From a bacterium (lineage in GTDB: Bacteria; Margulisbacteria; Marinamargulisbacteria; JABIPA01), in NCBI GenBank assembly GCA_018698675.1, contig JABIPA010000059.1:15784-79783 (forward strand): a DNA stretch of 64,000 nucleotides. The letters run 5' to 3'. Shown piece by piece: positions 28,663-35,081 of this stretch (position 1 is the first letter of the stretch; each line of letters begins with the position of its first letter). The position numbers and the translations under genes were made by a program. Below the pieces are notes generated by a model that was not told the DNA's origin, searched no databases, and saw only the letters and a list, made by a program, of their open reading frames with translations.

Positions 28663-29769
28663 TTAAAACATCATTACCTGACGAGCCATTTCTCTACCTA
28701 GAGGCGTCAAACTGAGCCGTGACTTATTACGAGTAATTAAGTTTTTCTGAACGGCTCTCTGAACTATTTTTTTTGCAAACCCTGCCGACCAAGCCATATG
28801 ATCAATCATGTTCTCTACGGTATTCTCCTGATCCTCATTGTCCAACCCTTCATGTCCTAAAATTTGAACCAATAGCATTTGAACAGAAAAATTAAGCTTC
28901 TTTTTAAAATGGCTCAACACTTTTGAAACGAGACCTCGTTCTCTTGCAAAAAATAAAGCCATCAAAAATAACACGCCATTCATTGTCGCCATCGAGCCAG
29001 CAATAGAAGCATCTAAAACGTAAGCCATACCATACCCCAACACGGCAGATGCGACGCCTACCGCCATACTTATGCCAATCATTCTGGATAACTTAGTCGT
29101 CAATAAAAAAGCGGTTGCAGGAGGAGCAATGATTAACGCCACAACCAAAACAGACCCAGCAACTTCGAATGCCCCAACGGTCGTAACACTTGTCACCGTC
29201 ATTAACCCGTAGTGAATTAAAACAGGAGAAAAACCCAATGACGTAGCCAATCCTTTATCAAAGGTTGCCAACTTTAACTCTTTATAAAATAGCAGTAAAC
29301 CAACAACATTAATCAACGATATTGTTCCCATCATCCATAACCCAACGGGACCAAGATCGAGCCCTCCAATATCCATCCTGTGGAAAGGAGCTAGTGCAAG
29401 CTCTCCTAATAAAACTGCATCTAAATCAATATGAACATTTCCCGCATATTTGCTAATTAATATGACTCCTATGGAAAAAAATAATGGAAACACTAAACCA
29501 ATGGCAGCATCTTTTTTTAACCTATTCGTGTTAATCAAAACCTCCGTTAAGGTAACAGTCAAAACACCAGTCAAAGCGGCTCCAATAATTAAAAGAGGCG
29601 AATCCAAGGTCTTTACCATAAAAAACATCACAACAATCCCAAGTAAAATAGCGTGACTGATTGCATCACTCATTAGCGCAACTCCACGCAAAACCAAGAA
29701 TACCCCCGGAATTGCACAAGAAAAAGCGGTTAACGCCGCAATTAAAATAATTTCAGTTTGAAAACTCAT
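28663..29769 (-). CDS. metal ABC transporter permease (YtgD/ZnuB/MntB family) with C-terminal winged-helix (DtxR-like) extension
   Basis: An 8-TM permease core (~275 aa) is followed by ~90 aa reading 'LVQILGHEGL...VENMIDHMAWSAGFAKKIVQRAVQKNLITR..SRLSLTPLGREMARQV', an HTH plus wing. Confidence 0.8.
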   Translation of the reverse strand: MSFQTEIILIAALTAFSCAIPGVFLVLRGVALMSDAISHAILLGIVVMFFMVKTLDSPLLIIGAALTGVLTVTLTEVLINTNRLKKDAAIGLVFPLFFSIGVILISKYAGNVHIDLDAVLLGELALAPFHRMDIGGLDLGPVGLWMMGTISLINVVGLLLFYKELKLATFDKGLATSLGFSPVLIHYGLMTVTSVTTVGAFEVAGSVLVVALIIAPPATAFLLTTKLSRMIGISMAVGVASAVLGYGMAYVLDASIAGSMATMNGVLFLMALFFARERGLVSKVLSHFKKKLNFSVQMLLVQILGHEGLDNEDQENTVENMIDHMAWSAGFAKKIVQRAVQKNLITRNKSRLSLTPLGREMARQVMMF

Positions 29770-30881
29770 GCCTGCATCCCCACTAATAAAGATCTTACGT
29801 ATTTGTGGCCCTTAATTGTTAGCCCCCAATGTTTATATGCCGTCGAATGAATATAACCACTCTCTTCCAATTTCCTAATAACCGAATCCAAACTAGCACC
29901 TCCAACGGATCTCAACGCCTGAATATCATGAGCATGAGTGACATCGTCGTGACCTTCTGAAAGATAAAACAGATTAGTTAAAAACGTATCTTCCTTGACT
30001 TGCTTTTGATTCGATTTATTCCTCTTCCATGCCCAAAAAAGGCCACGATTTGGAGCAAACCCTAATGAAGCAAAAACAATAGTACTAATAGCAACAACTA
30101 TAACGGGGCCAGTAGGTAAGTTATTAATCTGACTACTAAACATAACTCCGACTAATCCTGCTAATGCTCCAAAAATAGCAGCTAAAACAACCATCATTCC
30201 TAACCTATCCGTCCATTGTCGAGCGGCGGCAGCTGGAGCAATTATCATCGCACTCATCAAAACAACCCCAACCGTTTGCAACCCAATAACGATGCTACAA
30301 ACAATCAAACTCGTTAAAAATATATCTAATCGTTTTTGAGGAAACCCCAATGTTGCTGCAAACTCAGGATTAAACGACACTAACTTAAATTCCTTCCAAA
30401 AAAGAGTAAGTACCGCCAAAATGACAACGCCAAAAATTGTCATCACAATGACATCCTCTTCTAATAAAGTTGCTGCATTTCCGAATAGAAACCTGTTAAG
30501 CCCAGCCTTATTAGCGGTTGGAAGTCGTTGAATAATTGTAAGAAGAACCATTCCGAATCCGAAAAATACAGACAACACGATCCCGAGTGCGGCATCTTTT
30601 TTAAGAGAGGTATACTCCGTAATTAAAAACATGCCTAGAGATGCCAATATTCCAGAAATAATTGCGCCTATTAATAATACTAATAGACTTTTACTGTACG
30701 TTAACATGAAGGCTACCGCAATTCCTGGCAAAGCGGCATGAGATATAGCATCTCCCAACAAGCTTTGCTTCCTTAGAACGGCAAAACTACCCAAGGCACC
30801 CGAAACAATCCCTAATACCAACGTGCCTAATACAACTGTGCGGACCGTGTAATCAAAAAACAAATCATGAATAAGAGTCAT
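29766..30881 (-). CDS. metal ABC transporter permease (YtgC-like) with C-terminal winged-helix extension
   Basis: The permease core is followed by 'LTNLFYLSEG...IQALRSVGGASLDSVIRKLEESGYIHS...WGLTIKGHKYV', a wHTH. It overlaps the downstream permease gene by 4 nt. Confidence 0.8.
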   Translation of the reverse strand: MTLIHDLFFDYTVRTVVLGTLVLGIVSGALGSFAVLRKQSLLGDAISHAALPGIAVAFMLTYSKSLLVLLIGAIISGILASLGMFLITEYTSLKKDAALGIVLSVFFGFGMVLLTIIQRLPTANKAGLNRFLFGNAATLLEEDVIVMTIFGVVILAVLTLFWKEFKLVSFNPEFAATLGFPQKRLDIFLTSLIVCSIVIGLQTVGVVLMSAMIIAPAAAARQWTDRLGMMVVLAAIFGALAGLVGVMFSSQINNLPTGPVIVVAISTIVFASLGFAPNRGLFWAWKRNKSNQKQVKEDTFLTNLFYLSEGHDDVTHAHDIQALRSVGGASLDSVIRKLEESGYIHSTAYKHWGLTIKGHKYVRSLLVGMQA

Positions 30882-30883
30882 TA

Positions 30884-31648
30884 CTAGAGGGCGTCCAAAT
30901 TAATAGTAGTATCTTTTCCAACAAAAGGTGTTTTTCCGCTGTACGCCTGACTCAAGTTTTCTTGAGTTATTATATCTTTGACCGGTCCCATCGCTATTTT
31001 TCTAACGTTTAACAATAGTGCCCAATCAAAATAATCTTTTAGGGTTTGCAAATCGTGATGAACAACTATAACCGTTTTTTCTTTTCCTCTTAATTCTTTT
31101 AAAAGTGCCACAATTGCTTTTTCGGTCTTAGCATCAACCCCCACAAACGGTTCATCCATAAAATAAATTTGAGAATCTTGAGCCAGTGCTCGTGCTAAAA
31201 ACACGCGTTGTTGTTGACCTCCAGATAATTGATTTATCTGACGATATGCAAAATCCGCCATCCCTACTTTTTCAAGACATTCCATAGCTATTTCCACATC
31301 TCGTTTACCTGGCCGTTTAAACCAACCTAAATGACCATAACGCCCCATCAATACAACATCTAACGCATTCGTAGGAAAGTCCCAGTCGACGCTTCCGCGT
31401 TGAGGAACATATCCGACTGAACGAAAAGACTTTTGATAGACATTCCCGTTAATAAAAACACTACCTGCAGCGGGCTTTATTAAGCCTAATATGGCTTTTA
31501 TCAGTGTCGTCTTCCCTGCCCCATTTGGTCCTACAATAGCCATCAATACCCCGTGAGGAACCTTGATATCGATATCCCATAGAACGGGCTTCTCTTTATA
31601 AGCGACTGTTAAGTCACGAACCTCTACTGCAGGAATGATTGAATTCAT
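30884..31648 (-). CDS. metal ABC transporter ATP-binding protein (ZnuC/YtgB-like)
   Basis: The Walker A is 'GPNGAGKTTL', the ABC signature is 'LSGGQQQRV', and the Walker B is 'IYFMDEP'. Confidence 0.9.
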   Translation of the reverse strand: MNSIIPAVEVRDLTVAYKEKPVLWDIDIKVPHGVLMAIVGPNGAGKTTLIKAILGLIKPAAGSVFINGNVYQKSFRSVGYVPQRGSVDWDFPTNALDVVLMGRYGHLGWFKRPGKRDVEIAMECLEKVGMADFAYRQINQLSGGQQQRVFLARALAQDSQIYFMDEPFVGVDAKTEKAIVALLKELRGKEKTVIVVHHDLQTLKDYFDWALLLNVRKIAMGPVKDIITQENLSQAYSGKTPFVGKDTTINLDAL

Positions 31649-31649
31649 T

Positions 31650-32810
31650 TTAAAACCTTACATTTGCGATTAGGAGAAGTCCACTAACGTCAGTTTCTTG
31701 GCCAGCGGTTTCCTTTTCATAGTTATCCAACACCCATTCTGCTTTAAGCAAAACATTTTCTTTATGAAAGTACCCAATTCCTAGCTCGTATCGAGTTATC
31801 GTTTGGTCCGGAGAAACAGTTGCTCCAAAATTAAACGCTGGGTTTGGTAGAGTGGAGGACATTCCTGCTCCTGAACCATCGTTATCTTCTGGTATCCAAG
31901 TTGATACTCTCCCTGAAACAAACATATCTCCTACATTATGTCTTGCTTCTGCAATAATAGACGTAACCTTGTCTTCTGTTCCATCATGCTCATCCCCATA
32001 AGTTAATTGAGAATAAGATCCAATCAATTCAGTTGATGTTCCAATTATCGAGATACCGTCAACCATCCACCCTTGGAAATCTGACGAAAAGCCAGATGTG
32101 GCGTTTTTAATATCATTGCTTCTCATATATGTTCCACTTAATTCAGTTTTAATTTCTTCGATAAATAAGGACTGCCCGATTACCAATTCAAATTGACCGT
32201 CTGGATTCGTCGCTGATTCATCCGTACCATTCGAAATTGCCAACGTAGACGTCCCTACGGATGAATCCCAATTAATCATTGCTCCCAATGTATTCAATGT
32301 TCCCATTGGTCCTGCAAAGGCACTGTATAACAAAGGATTAATTATTAAGTTATTGTTAAATGTATCCGCATTATTTGATAACATTCCTGTTTGTTGTCCA
32401 AAGGGAGTATCATAAGACCCTACAACCACAGTTACTGTTCTCGCTCTATTTGTATATTCAATACCTATATCTGTTAACTCAGCCCCGGGACCAGGGAACC
32501 CGTATGTTCCATTTCCTGGGCTTGTTTGTAATTGAAGATAGGCCTTAATTCCTGGCGCTAATTTCGTCTCAAAATCAATGTTTGCAGCATAATCAAATTG
32601 ATATCGATTAGTAGCTGAGTTTGTACTTTGGGTAAGAAGATTTAATCCTCCTAAAATCGACCCACCAACGCTTACATTATTCATAAAATCACTAATTTTT
32701 ACGCGCTCTTCTAGTGGAAATAATCCAGATACTTCTAAATTTGCCATTGTAGGGCTTACCAAAATAGCTAGTGACGCCGCCAATATTCCTATATTTTTTA
32801 AATTTTTCAT
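31650..32810 (-). CDS. outer-membrane beta-barrel (porin-like) protein embedded in metal-uptake operon
   Basis: A signal peptide ('AILVSPTMA') is present. Amphipathic beta-strand periodicity runs throughout. The aromatic C-terminus '...LLLIANVRF' has a terminal Phe. The gene is tightly packed between the SBP and ATPase genes. Confidence 0.5.
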   Translation of the reverse strand: MKNLKNIGILAASLAILVSPTMANLEVSGLFPLEERVKISDFMNNVSVGGSILGGLNLLTQSTNSATNRYQFDYAANIDFETKLAPGIKAYLQLQTSPGNGTYGFPGPGAELTDIGIEYTNRARTVTVVVGSYDTPFGQQTGMLSNNADTFNNNLIINPLLYSAFAGPMGTLNTLGAMINWDSSVGTSTLAISNGTDESATNPDGQFELVIGQSLFIEEIKTELSGTYMRSNDIKNATSGFSSDFQGWMVDGISIIGTSTELIGSYSQLTYGDEHDGTEDKVTSIIAEARHNVGDMFVSGRVSTWIPEDNDGSGAGMSSTLPNPAFNFGATVSPDQTITRYELGIGYFHKENVLLKAEWVLDNYEKETAGQETDVSGLLLIANVRF

Positions 32811-32898: not shown

Positions 32899-33945
32899 CT
32901 AGTGAGTATGATTATCTCCGCCATGATGATGATGGCCTTGTTCAATACTTTTTTTACGTGGAGCCAATCCATTTAATATCGTAGTCGTATTATGCTCAAC
33001 CATTCCAATATAAGTCCCTTCAGCTGTTCCTGGATTTCCCATTGCGTCTGAAAATAACTCGCCACCAATTTTAACATCCCACCCACGTGACTGAGTTGCT
33101 CTTTGAACGGCTTCAATATTTCTTTTTGAAATCGATGATTCAATGAAAATGGCTGGGATTTTGTTATCTACTATATAAGTCGCTAAATTTTGAATATCTC
33201 TCGTACCCGCTTCAGATTCCGTACTTATCCCCATCAATCCTTTTACAACGAAACCATAAGCTAGTCCGTAATAATTAAAAGCATCATGAGCTGTAACTAA
33301 AACACGTTGCTCTTTAGGAATCATATCCGTTTTTTCCTCAATCCACGTGTTCAACTTATTTAATTTTGTTAAATAGGCCGCCTTGTTCCTTAAAAACGCT
33401 TCTTTATTTTCAGGATCTAGTGTTATCAACGTATCTCCAACGGCATCTACAGCATACGCCCATAACTCAACGTCAAACCACACATGAGGATCAAATTGCC
33501 CTTCGAATTCAGGTGGTTTTTTTAGTTTATCTTTAGGAATACGTTCGGCAACAGCGACTGTTGGTTTCTGTTTATTTAGCTTTTTAAAAATGTCCCCCAT
33601 TTTGGCTTCTAAGTGTAATCCATTATAAAAAATAATATTTGCGTCTGATAATTTCCGTACATCTCCTTCGCTTGCCCGATAAAGATGAGGGTCCACTCCA
33701 GGCCCCATTAATCCAACAACGTCAACATATTCTCCACCAACATTGGTTACTATGTCAGCTATCATTCCGGTTGTTGCAACCGCGTGTACTAAATTCTCAT
33801 TCTTTGTTCCTGATTTGTCATCGTTACATCCAAACAATCCTAAACTAACAATTCCAATCATTCCTGCTCCGATCAAAAATGACGTCGCTTTTAAAAACGT
33901 ATTCAACGTAAAAAATTGTTCTCTTTTTTGATTTATATTTTTCAT
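32899..33945 (-). CDS. metal ABC transporter substrate-binding protein (ZnuA/TroA/YtgA cluster A-I) with His-rich C-terminus
   Basis: A lipoprotein signal 'LGLFGCN' is present. The fold is TroA-like. The C-terminal tail is 'GHHHHGGDNHTH'. Confidence 0.85.
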   Translation of the reverse strand: MKNINQKREQFFTLNTFLKATSFLIGAGMIGIVSLGLFGCNDDKSGTKNENLVHAVATTGMIADIVTNVGGEYVDVVGLMGPGVDPHLYRASEGDVRKLSDANIIFYNGLHLEAKMGDIFKKLNKQKPTVAVAERIPKDKLKKPPEFEGQFDPHVWFDVELWAYAVDAVGDTLITLDPENKEAFLRNKAAYLTKLNKLNTWIEEKTDMIPKEQRVLVTAHDAFNYYGLAYGFVVKGLMGISTESEAGTRDIQNLATYIVDNKIPAIFIESSISKRNIEAVQRATQSRGWDVKIGGELFSDAMGNPGTAEGTYIGMVEHNTTTILNGLAPRKKSIEQGHHHHGGDNHTH

Positions 33946-33963: not shown

Positions 33964-34659
33964 CTAATTTATTGGGTCTACCCAAATATTTTGACAAATT
34001 TTAGTACTCAAACTCGATGTTTTTTCACCAATTCTAACCTGTACTGTTCCATCAAATTCCAATATTCCGGAAACAGTAATCAACACCCCTATTGTTATTC
34101 CTTCGTTCTCAAGATGTTCTAATAATTCCGAGTCAAAATTACTAACTCTTACAATTTTACAAACATCCCCTTTTTTACTCTCTGACAAAGGTATTGCAGT
34201 CTTATGTGTTGGAATGATTCCGTTTTTGTCAGGAATAGGCGCTCCATGAGGGTCGAATTGTGGGAACCCTAATTTCTTATCCATTTTATTTATAAGATAG
34301 TCTGAAGCAAAATGTTCCAAAACTTCTGCTTCTTCATGCACCATATTTCGAGGAATATCTAAGTATTCATGAAGATAAAGCTCAATTAATCGATGACGCC
34401 GGATAACCAATTTCCCCTTTTTGATTCCTTCGGGTAATAAACGAACACCCTTGTATGGAATGTAGTCTAATAATTCTTTGGTCGCTAATTTCTTAACCAT
34501 TTCACTTACGGCGGCAGACGTTACTCCAAGTTTATTTGCAATATCTTGAGTTTTTACGGAACCGGAAGACACATTCATCAATTTATAAATTGCCTTTAAA
34601 TAATCCTCGGTACTTATGGACTCTTTCTTTGTTTCATCGGTAATTTTTATAATGCTCAT
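33964..34659 (-). CDS. DtxR/MntR-family metal-dependent transcriptional regulator (with C-terminal FeoA/SH3-like domain)
   Basis: The N-terminal HTH is 'TEDYLKAIYKL...VKTQDIANKLGVTSAAVSEMVKKLATKELLDYIPYKGVRLLPEGIKKG'. The protein is 231 aa. Confidence 0.8.
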   Translation of the reverse strand: MSIIKITDETKKESISTEDYLKAIYKLMNVSSGSVKTQDIANKLGVTSAAVSEMVKKLATKELLDYIPYKGVRLLPEGIKKGKLVIRRHRLIELYLHEYLDIPRNMVHEEAEVLEHFASDYLINKMDKKLGFPQFDPHGAPIPDKNGIIPTHKTAIPLSESKKGDVCKIVRVSNFDSELLEHLENEGITIGVLITVSGILEFDGTVQVRIGEKTSSLSTKICQNIWVDPIN

Positions 34660-34697
34660 ACTTTATTTCCTTCTACCCAACTATAATTAGATTTTAG

Positions 34698-34719
34698 AAG
34701 TTTAAGCATGCTTAAACTT
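34698..34719. promoter_or_regulatory. 22-bp perfect palindrome (candidate DtxR-family operator) upstream of the regulator/ytg-like operon
   Basis: 'aagtttaagcatgcttaaactt' is its own reverse complement. It lies ~40 bp upstream of the DtxR-family gene start at 34659. Confidence 0.45.
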
Positions 34720-35081
34720 TTTGTCAAGCACCCTTTATTTAATAGTTGGGAATAACCAATAAATAAATTTTTGCCTTAAGTACAGATTAATTATCCAATT
34801 TTTTACAGAGGTTTTTAAAGCGAAGATATAAAAGCAATACCAACGTCGAGGCTTATTTTCTTGGCATCTCAGTGAATACATTTATATATAGCTATAGAGG
34901 TGTTTTTTATAATACAGATCCTGAAAAAATGCAGAAAAGAGCTCTTACGTTATAGATGCCTATTCACTAATTCGATAGTATTCTTAGTTTTTAATAAAAA
35001 AATCGTGTTCGAAACGAAGTTCGTGAAGAAAAAAACGTTCATGTTGAAAGGAACCTAATTGAGTGTCCTCAACCTACTGTT

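Follow-up and report, generated by a model that had tools for sequence, protein, structure and literature searches.

What function might a perfect inverted repeat serve in front of a gene for a DtxR-family metalloregulator? This question is raised by a locus in the 64-kb stretch of DNA analysed here (64,000 nucleotides in total; hereafter, the window). The preliminary description had noticed a perfect 22-bp palindrome approximately 40 bp upstream of the regulator start, within an intergenic region of approximately 420 bp, and proposed that it might be an autoregulatory operator of the DtxR family. Rereading of the sequence returned exactly such a palindrome, AAGTTTAAGCATGCTTAAACTT, composed of two 11-nt halves with no spacer between them (34698–34719, assigned to neither strand). 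The ATG of the regulator, encoded on the minus strand, lies 39 bp from the near edge of the palindrome, with the palindrome upstream, and the intergenic region spans positions 34660–35081, i.e., 422 bp. The proposed function is supported as well, judging from the three-domain regulator gene adjacent to the palindrome, the overlap with a predicted promoter, the palindromes found in front of orthologous regulators and the covariation of these palindromes with the recognition helix. Such evidence makes it very probable, in our opinion, that the palindrome is an autoregulatory operator of an MntR/ScaR-like repressor, which would control its own operon for ABC-type metal uptake by occluding the promoter. 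We infer that the binding is metal-dependent, and the sensed metal and the transcription start discussed below should be read in the same way.

The palindrome and the metal-uptake operon behind it

As a predicted operator, the palindrome was identified from the sequence as read directly, from a matrix built with the window's own site left out and from its retention in a relative, the regulator of which is 90% identical. It may also be described as two 8-nt arms, AAGTTTAA and TTAAACTT, having TTTAAG as their core and flanking a 6-nt centre. Being an A/T-rich inverted repeat within the range of approximately 18–22 bp, with arms spaced for a dimer, AAGTTTAAGCATGCTTAAACTT has the form that operators of the DtxR/MntR family take. 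No longer perfect palindrome exists in the window, the runner-up being 16 bp in length. Analytically, 0.033 perfect 22-mer palindromes are expected per 64 kb at the composition of the window (36% G+C), and 0.0002 in the 422-bp intergenic region; first-order shuffling of the whole window produced a palindrome with a half-length of at least 11 in 10 cases out of 200. Overall, the symmetry by itself is only mildly to moderately unusual window-wide and very unlikely at this particular place. The intergenic region contains no convincing small ORFs.

On the minus strand, the palindrome is followed by an operon of six genes, coding for the regulator, a ZnuA-type binding protein, a 386-aa protein, an ATPase and two ABC-3 permeases. 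These genes are separated by gaps of 18, 88, 1 and 2 nt and, at the last junction, overlap by 4 nt, while the genes beyond the second permease lie on the opposite strand. Such an arrangement on one strand is compatible with a single transcription unit, and we infer that the six genes are co-transcribed.

The first gene of the operon (33964–34659, minus strand) encodes a DtxR-family metalloregulator of 231 aa, the predicted binder of the palindrome. It belongs to the long three-domain DtxR type, carrying DNA-binding, metal-binding/dimerisation and FeoA/SH3-like domains (Pfam PF01325, PF02742 and PF04023). An operator of the DtxR/MntR family is expected to have a cognate regulator, and this adjacent three-domain gene provides one. 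The best solved relatives of the regulator are 5zr4 (E 2e-38), ScaR (1e-31), DR2539 of Deinococcus (3e-31), SloR and 6o5c. Of these, 5zr4 is deposited only as 'Metal-dependent transcriptional regulator' and is probably a mycobacterial MntR, while 6o5c is deposited as a putative metal-dependent transcriptional regulator. The top NCBIfam model was the Thermus-type MntR, with a score well under its equivalog cutoff. Judging from the alignment coordinates, Asp19 of the regulator presumably occupies the position of DtxR Met10, and Glu112 that of DtxR Cys102. In the literature on DtxR/MntR selectivity, Asp and Glu instead of Met10 and Cys102 are the pattern of manganese-type members, and Asp19 and Glu112 lead us to suggest that the regulator is of the manganese type.

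The second gene begins 18 nt past the regulator stop codon and encodes a ZnuA/TroA-type periplasmic metal-binding protein of 348 aa with a His-rich C-terminal end (32899–33945, minus strand; PF01297, E 1e-78). Its His-rich tail reads GHHHHGGDNHTH (32899–32940, minus strand), and the zinc-type AztC model was its best NCBIfam match, at a score below the cutoff. These features of the binding protein stand in contrast to the regulator, which looks manganese-type. Between the genes for the binding protein and the ATPase lies the gene for the 386-aa protein (31650–32810, minus strand), which had no match in Pfam or NCBIfam; among the fetched loci, it was found solely in close relatives, at 85–88% identity. 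A hydrophobic N-terminal stretch and the end ...ANVRF fit an outer-membrane beta-barrel, and the protein is possibly located in the outer membrane. The operon continues with the genes for an ABC transporter ATPase of 254 aa (30884–31648, minus strand; PF00005) and for ABC-3 permease 1 of 371 aa, which bears a C-terminal tail of approximately 95 aa (29766–30881, minus strand; PF00950). The last gene codes for ABC-3 permease 2 of 368 aa, likewise with a C-terminal tail (28663–29769, minus strand), which matched the AztB/SloB-type permease models of NCBIfam below their cutoffs.

The overlapping predicted promoter and its conservation in a close relative

A consensus scan of the intergenic region gave a sole strong sigma-70-like match, TTGACA-17-TAAACT on the minus strand, which agrees with the consensus at 10 of 12 positions and is to be read as a consensus match only. 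Its -35 hexamer TTGACA occupies positions 34722–34727 and is separated by a 17-nt spacer from the -10 hexamer TAAACT, located at 34699–34704, wholly within the palindrome. Altogether, 15 of the 17 spacer bases, the entire -10 hexamer and one base past it fall within the palindrome. Thus, a repressor bound here would occlude RNA polymerase. An operator of this kind is expected to overlap the promoter of a metal-uptake operon, and the palindrome lies in the predicted promoter of a ZnuA/ABC-3 operon. Further downstream, 8 nt before the regulator ATG, a ribosome-binding site GAAGGA may be read from the sequence (34668–34673, minus strand), and it is kept in the close relative.

As a side observation, the -35 region GTGCTTGACA (34720–34731, minus strand) is a direct repeat of the operator right arm ATGCTTAAAC, and according to a predicted fold, of RNA or DNA, it is able to base-pair with the left arm. 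This region could be a third, degenerate half-site, or the resemblance could be a mere coincidence.

A search for the regulator among 5.8 billion proteins returned one 100% identical entry, one relative at 90% identity and then nothing above approximately 50%. With no proteins between 90% and approximately 50% identity, a single relative is all that footprinting within the lineage can draw on. This relative is represented by four metagenome contigs and the MAG SI072_bin15 (loci L001–L004 and L008), all with an identical gene order. The lineage is poorly sampled, its sole close relative among public genomes being SI072_bin15, a marine MAG.

When the two intergenic regions are aligned, the flanks are just about half identical, and the promoter–operator block is the best conserved part. 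The longest conserved run, TGCTTGACA.AAA.TTTAAGCAT.C.TAAACTT, corresponds to the -35 hexamer, the spacer and the -10 hexamer. The site of the relative, AACTTTAAGCATACCTAAACTT, keeps 19 of the 22 bases and 8 of the 11 symmetric pairs, and 13 of the 17 spacer bases are common to both organisms. Since the conserved block includes the promoter hexamers, its conservation is partly owed to the promoter. Likewise, the imperfect palindrome of the relative indicates that perfect symmetry is not itself selected. We also noticed a perfect 9-bp inverted repeat, CCCAACTAT / ATAGTTGGG, at 34676–34684 and 34742–34750, which brackets the promoter and the operator with 57 bp between its copies; it is not conserved in the relative, and we take it as probably a chance occurrence for this reason.

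Keeping the overlap in mind, one might suppose that the element is nothing more than a promoter, with no repressor involved, and that its -10 hexamer and spacer, being A/T-rich, form a palindrome by coincidence. Indeed, the -35 and -10 hexamers, which lie within or next to the site, show no change in the relative, three of the eleven symmetric pairs are lost there and approximately 5% of whole-window shuffles hold an equally long perfect palindrome. Spacers, however, are not normally conserved, while most of the spacer bases are common to the window and the relative in this case. Further evidence bearing on this explanation comes from distant phyla and is given in the next section.

The repeat might also act at the RNA level, as a hairpin; its role would be to stabilise the transcript or, through termination or attenuation, to limit transcription running in from the glycosyltransferase gene upstream. 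The corresponding minus-strand RNA folds at -11.8 kcal/mol (z -2.8), being stabler than any of its shuffles. However, the site is not terminator-like: instead of a G+C-rich stem followed by a U-run, there is an A/T-rich stem with only two G-C pairs per arm, followed on the minus strand by CTAAAATC. Moreover, half of the palindrome would be left untranscribed if the start lies past the predicted -10 hexamer, and the three substitutions of the relative break pairing with no compensation. The sole match in an Rfam scan of the intergenic region was to a microRNA model, at chance level (E 0.55) and away from the palindrome. Overall, the likelihood of such an RNA-level function appears to us close to negligible.

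Sites in front of orthologous regulators

If the palindrome is an operator, further copies might be expected before other members of the regulon, and the preliminary description had suggested looking for them upstream of other metal-homeostasis genes. None turned up in the window, in the flanks of the relative or in one metagenome scan. No other copy of the full site was found in the window with up to three mismatches, while the half-site with up to one mismatch occurred there five times against 3.5 expected, i.e., at chance level. A matrix scan of the window gave only one match above 15 bits besides the palindrome, namely TAATTTAGACTTGCTTCAAAAT at 46906–46927 (16.9 bits); it lies inside the gene for DNA polymerase III alpha (dnaE, 46185–49742, minus strand), and we take it as a chance match. 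The same kind of scan revealed no second site in the flanks of the relative. The metagenome scan, conducted with AASTTTAAGCATRCYTAAACTT, returned three loci, none of them beside a metal gene. In two of these (L088, 6048–6069; L090, 6752–6773), the 22-mer runs across the start codon (ATG CTT AAA CTT, i.e., MLKL) of an unrelated, secreted-looking protein of 364 aa; with no metal genes nearby, all three loci were dismissed as chance. The preliminary description had also reasoned that a lack of similar sites elsewhere, together with a lack of protein binding, would point to a coincidental palindrome or a terminator remnant. A lack of similar sites is indeed what this genome fragment displays, and the argument is nevertheless overturned by orthologous sites in other genomes. 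Thus, support for the operator comes from these orthologous sites and not from a regulon in the organism itself.

An alignment comprising the regulator and homologous proteins was used to scan species-representative genomes, which yielded 80 loci at 38–45% identity from Ignavibacteria, Bacteroidota, Poribacteria, Thermoleophilia, Gemmatimonadota and other taxa. When the 300 bp preceding each regulator were searched for near-palindromes in an unbiased manner, 20–22-bp sites of one kind came up repeatedly, mostly 5–40 bp before the start; examples are AAATTTAAGCATACTTAAATTT from Ignavibacteria, ATTTTTAGATTTACCTAAAAAT from Pedobacter, ATTTTTAGGTAAGCCTAAAAAT from Saprospiraceae and ATTTCTTGGCTTGCCAAGAAAT from Thermoleophilaceae. 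An iterated palindromic matrix was then applied to 80 upstream regions, i.e., the non-redundant loci and the window, and 59 of them contained a 22-bp site scoring 8 bits or more. Thereby, a 22-bp palindrome of the TTTAR-N6-YTAAA type is present just upstream of the regulator start in approximately 55 of 79 orthologues belonging to several phyla. Of the 79 regulators, 28 have the bare pattern TTTAR-N6-YTAAA within the 150 bp upstream; over the 160 bp preceding the regulators, its density reaches 2.2 per kb, approximately 94-fold higher than the 0.024 per kb of the other 845 kb of these loci.

The window's site was among the initial seeds of the motif search, a circularity that the final matrix and the count of the bare pattern avoid. 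The final matrix was composed of 53 unique orthologous sites, with the window and its close relative left out, and it ranks the palindrome of the window first in the 64 kb, at 19.5 bits. This score was reached by 3 of 500 whole-window shuffles and by 3 of 20,000 shuffles of the intergenic region. For an operator of the DtxR/MntR family, one expects the motif to be kept at orthologous places and to occur together with the regulator, and this is the picture observed here.

The motif was almost absent from the 6-kb flanks of the 79 orthologous loci outside the regulators' own upstream regions, only three sites there attaining at least 17 bits. Two of these, at 17–19 bits and both from Bacteroidota (L051, 6345–6366; L055, 6357–6378), are situated 393 nt inside the regulator genes; the codons for the conserved peptide LGFPKF (TTT TTA GGT TTT CCA AAA TTT) mimic the motif in these two loci, which is why we regard the matches as probably a coding coincidence. 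In 13 other non-redundant loci (from Flavobacteriaceae, Saprospiraceae, Poribacteria and others), the genes for the regulator, the binding protein, the ATPase and the two permeases follow in the same order as in the window, with the motif in front. In one further locus, the regulator is located ahead of feoAB-type genes.

This sequence-based comparative evidence is the decisive support for reading the palindrome as a putative operator, and it also bears on the explanation by a promoter without a repressor. Bacteroidota reportedly have main promoter elements that deviate from the sigma-70 consensus, whereas the same palindromic architecture recurs before orthologous regulators in distant phyla, Bacteroidota included. 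Furthermore, the motif co-varies with the recognition helix, and a matrix free of the lineage singles out the site in the window. With all this taken together, we consider it quite unlikely that the element is a promoter only.

The covariation itself emerged when the orthologous loci were sorted by the base at motif position 8. Loci with TTTAAG arms (n = 13) encode regulators whose recognition helix starts with I/V-S-x-A-A-V-T/S-D-M, with minor exceptions, while in loci with TTTAG(A/G) arms (approximately 38), the recognition helix mostly starts with T-K-x-x-S-V-T-D-M. In the window, the helix of the regulator starts with V-T-S-A-A-V-S-E-M, and the site has TTTAAG. Such a pairing of helix variants with half-site variants is predicted by direct recognition and thus argues against an unrelated factor, e.g., Fur, Zur or a global regulator encoded elsewhere in the genome, as the protein binding to the palindrome. 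One may well imagine such a factor, given that our view is limited to 64 kb of the genome, in which case further regulators are possible, and that the best NCBIfam match of the binding protein is of the zinc type, albeit below the cutoff. Nevertheless, in different phyla the motif is found together with this particular regulator family, and it varies in step with the recognition helix of these proteins.

Known operators, the permease tails and the proposed circuit

Among the operators described so far, those of PsaR, SloR and ScaR, which belong to streptococcal Mn(II) uptake systems, are 22 bp long and A/T-rich, with 8-nt arms and a 6-nt centre, as is the site in the window. In particular, the PsaR/SloR operator AAAATTAACTTGACTTAATTTT consists of inverted repeats of 8 nt with 6 nt between them (PMC3688865). 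In register, it is identical to the site in the window at 13 of 22 positions, including equally spaced TTAA cores and one TTAAG arm. The binders are also alike, being three-domain members of the DtxR family, with ScaR and SloR among the closest solved relatives of the regulator discussed here; the target in both cases is a metal importer of the ZnuA/ABC-3 type. This common 22-bp architecture, together with the TTAAG core, speaks further against Fur, Zur or another factor from elsewhere in the genome, and we consider such a binder extremely improbable. At the same time, AAAATTAACTTGACTTAATTTT scores just 7.8 bits on the matrix of this clade, and its arms are AAAATTAA as opposed to AAGTTTAA or ATTTTTAG here, so the motif in the window is a related but distinct sub-motif. 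Another difference is that the regulator gene in the window is the first of the transporter operon, hence autoregulated. ScaR was reported to require a second inverted repeat within a 46-nt operator (PMC3688865), whereas no such second repeat is evident at the site in the window.

The tro operons of Treponema provide another parallel, an ABC-3 transporter being encoded there together with its own DtxR-family repressor, TroR, in one operon that has a dyad at its promoter. In T. pallidum, the TroR operator overlaps the promoter, as at the site in the window (PMC2628430), and TroR of T. denticola has an SH3-like C-terminal domain, which is also present in the window's regulator. However, the TroR dyads, deduced from oligonucleotides as ATTTTGATATATCAAAAT for T. 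denticola and ACTTTGATGCATCAAAAT for T. pallidum (PMC2628430), are 18 bp long with TTTGAT arms; they are identical to the site in the window at 6–9 of 22 positions in register and score 8.6 and -0.1 bits on our matrix. The Treponema pattern AYTTTGAT-NN-ATCAAAAT is accordingly not what the palindrome in the window displays. The gene order differs in addition: the regulatory gene troR stands last in troABCDR, while in the window, the regulator gene comes first.

In Actinobacteria, the DtxR/IdeR iron box is the 19-bp TTAGGTTAGSCTAACCTAA. It is likewise a palindromic operator of the same superfamily through which metal-uptake genes are repressed by promoter occlusion, but this consensus differs from the site in the window in its odd length, central base pair, G/C-containing TTAGG arms and spacing. 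The proteins differ too, DtxR having Met10 and Cys102 where the window's regulator appears to have Asp and Glu.

In Chlamydia, YtgR is reported to be a full DtxR-like domain, representing the C-terminal part cleaved from the permease YtgC. The permeases in the window also carry C-terminal extensions, and the preliminary description had considered them as possible binders of the palindrome. They extend approximately 95 aa past the ABC-3 domain in each permease (29769–30059 and 28666–28953, minus strand). Tail 1 is weakly similar to a winged helix-turn-helix: it matched PF01325 with E 0.016, below the cutoff, and the regulator itself in BLASTP with E 0.015, colinear with its DNA-binding domain. 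Tail 2 had no significant family match, PF02742 was matched by neither tail and both are too short for a metal-binding or dimerisation domain. Homologous permeases of Flavobacteriaceae align nearly full length, to residues 360–368, and in Poribacteria, this holds for the second permease only; hence, such tails seem to be widespread.

It is tempting to suppose that these tails bind the palindrome in a YtgR-like manner, either alone or together with the regulator. There is a precedent, since YtgR of C. trachomatis is a repressor of the ytgABCD promoter, which drives its own operon (PMC6504234), and its operator is likewise an A/T-rich palindrome before a ytg/tro-type ABC-3 operon, bound by a DtxR-like repressor (PMC6504234). 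The presence of tails on both permeases and the colinearity of tail 1 with the DNA-binding domain of the regulator would favour this. On the other hand, the similarities of tail 1 stay below the family thresholds, tail 2 has none and neither tail amounts to the full DtxR-like domain fused to the permease C-terminus that defines the YtgC–YtgR arrangement. The window also differs from Chlamydia in encoding a separate, complete regulator right beside the site, and it is with the helix of this regulator that the half-site co-varies. Moreover, the motif tracks the regulator at approximately 55 other loci, only 13 of which had matching transporter genes within the fetched flanks. Thus, the tails turn out to be poor candidates, and we regard binding by them as highly improbable. 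A separate, bolder supposition is that the operator is read by two proteins, i.e., the stand-alone repressor and winged-helix tails released from, or tethered to, both permeases, which we find very unlikely. If true, it would mean that the state of the transporter and the cytoplasmic metal level both feed one promoter, and the locus would represent a free-living counterpart of the Chlamydia YtgC–YtgR system.

Returning to the palindrome as an operator of the adjacent regulator, we might depict the following scenario. Under a plentiful supply of the cognate divalent metal, for which Mn(II) is the most likely candidate and Fe(II) a possible further one, a metal-loaded dimer of the regulator would sit on the two TTTAAG arms, with one recognition helix per arm. 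Positioned on the spacer and the -10 hexamer of TTGACA-17-TAAACT, the repressor would block RNA polymerase. Once the metal is low, the apo-repressor would leave the DNA, and the six-gene operon would be transcribed. As the regulator is encoded by the first gene of this operon, the circuit would be negatively autoregulated.

Overall, this is an ordinary, well-known kind of bacterial regulation, and the view of how such regulators work stays unchanged. What our analysis provides, for an uncultured lineage, is a specific prediction of where a metal-uptake operon has its operator and its promoter. Beyond this locus, it offers a reusable motif, TTTAR-N6-YTAAA, with a helix-dependent variant, for a clade of three-domain, Mn-type DtxR regulators found in Bacteroidota, Ignavibacteria, Poribacteria and other taxa. 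As the autoregulatory motif of this cross-phylum clade, TTTAR-N6-YTAAA may not have been described as such previously, and it might be used for annotating the regulons of these regulators.
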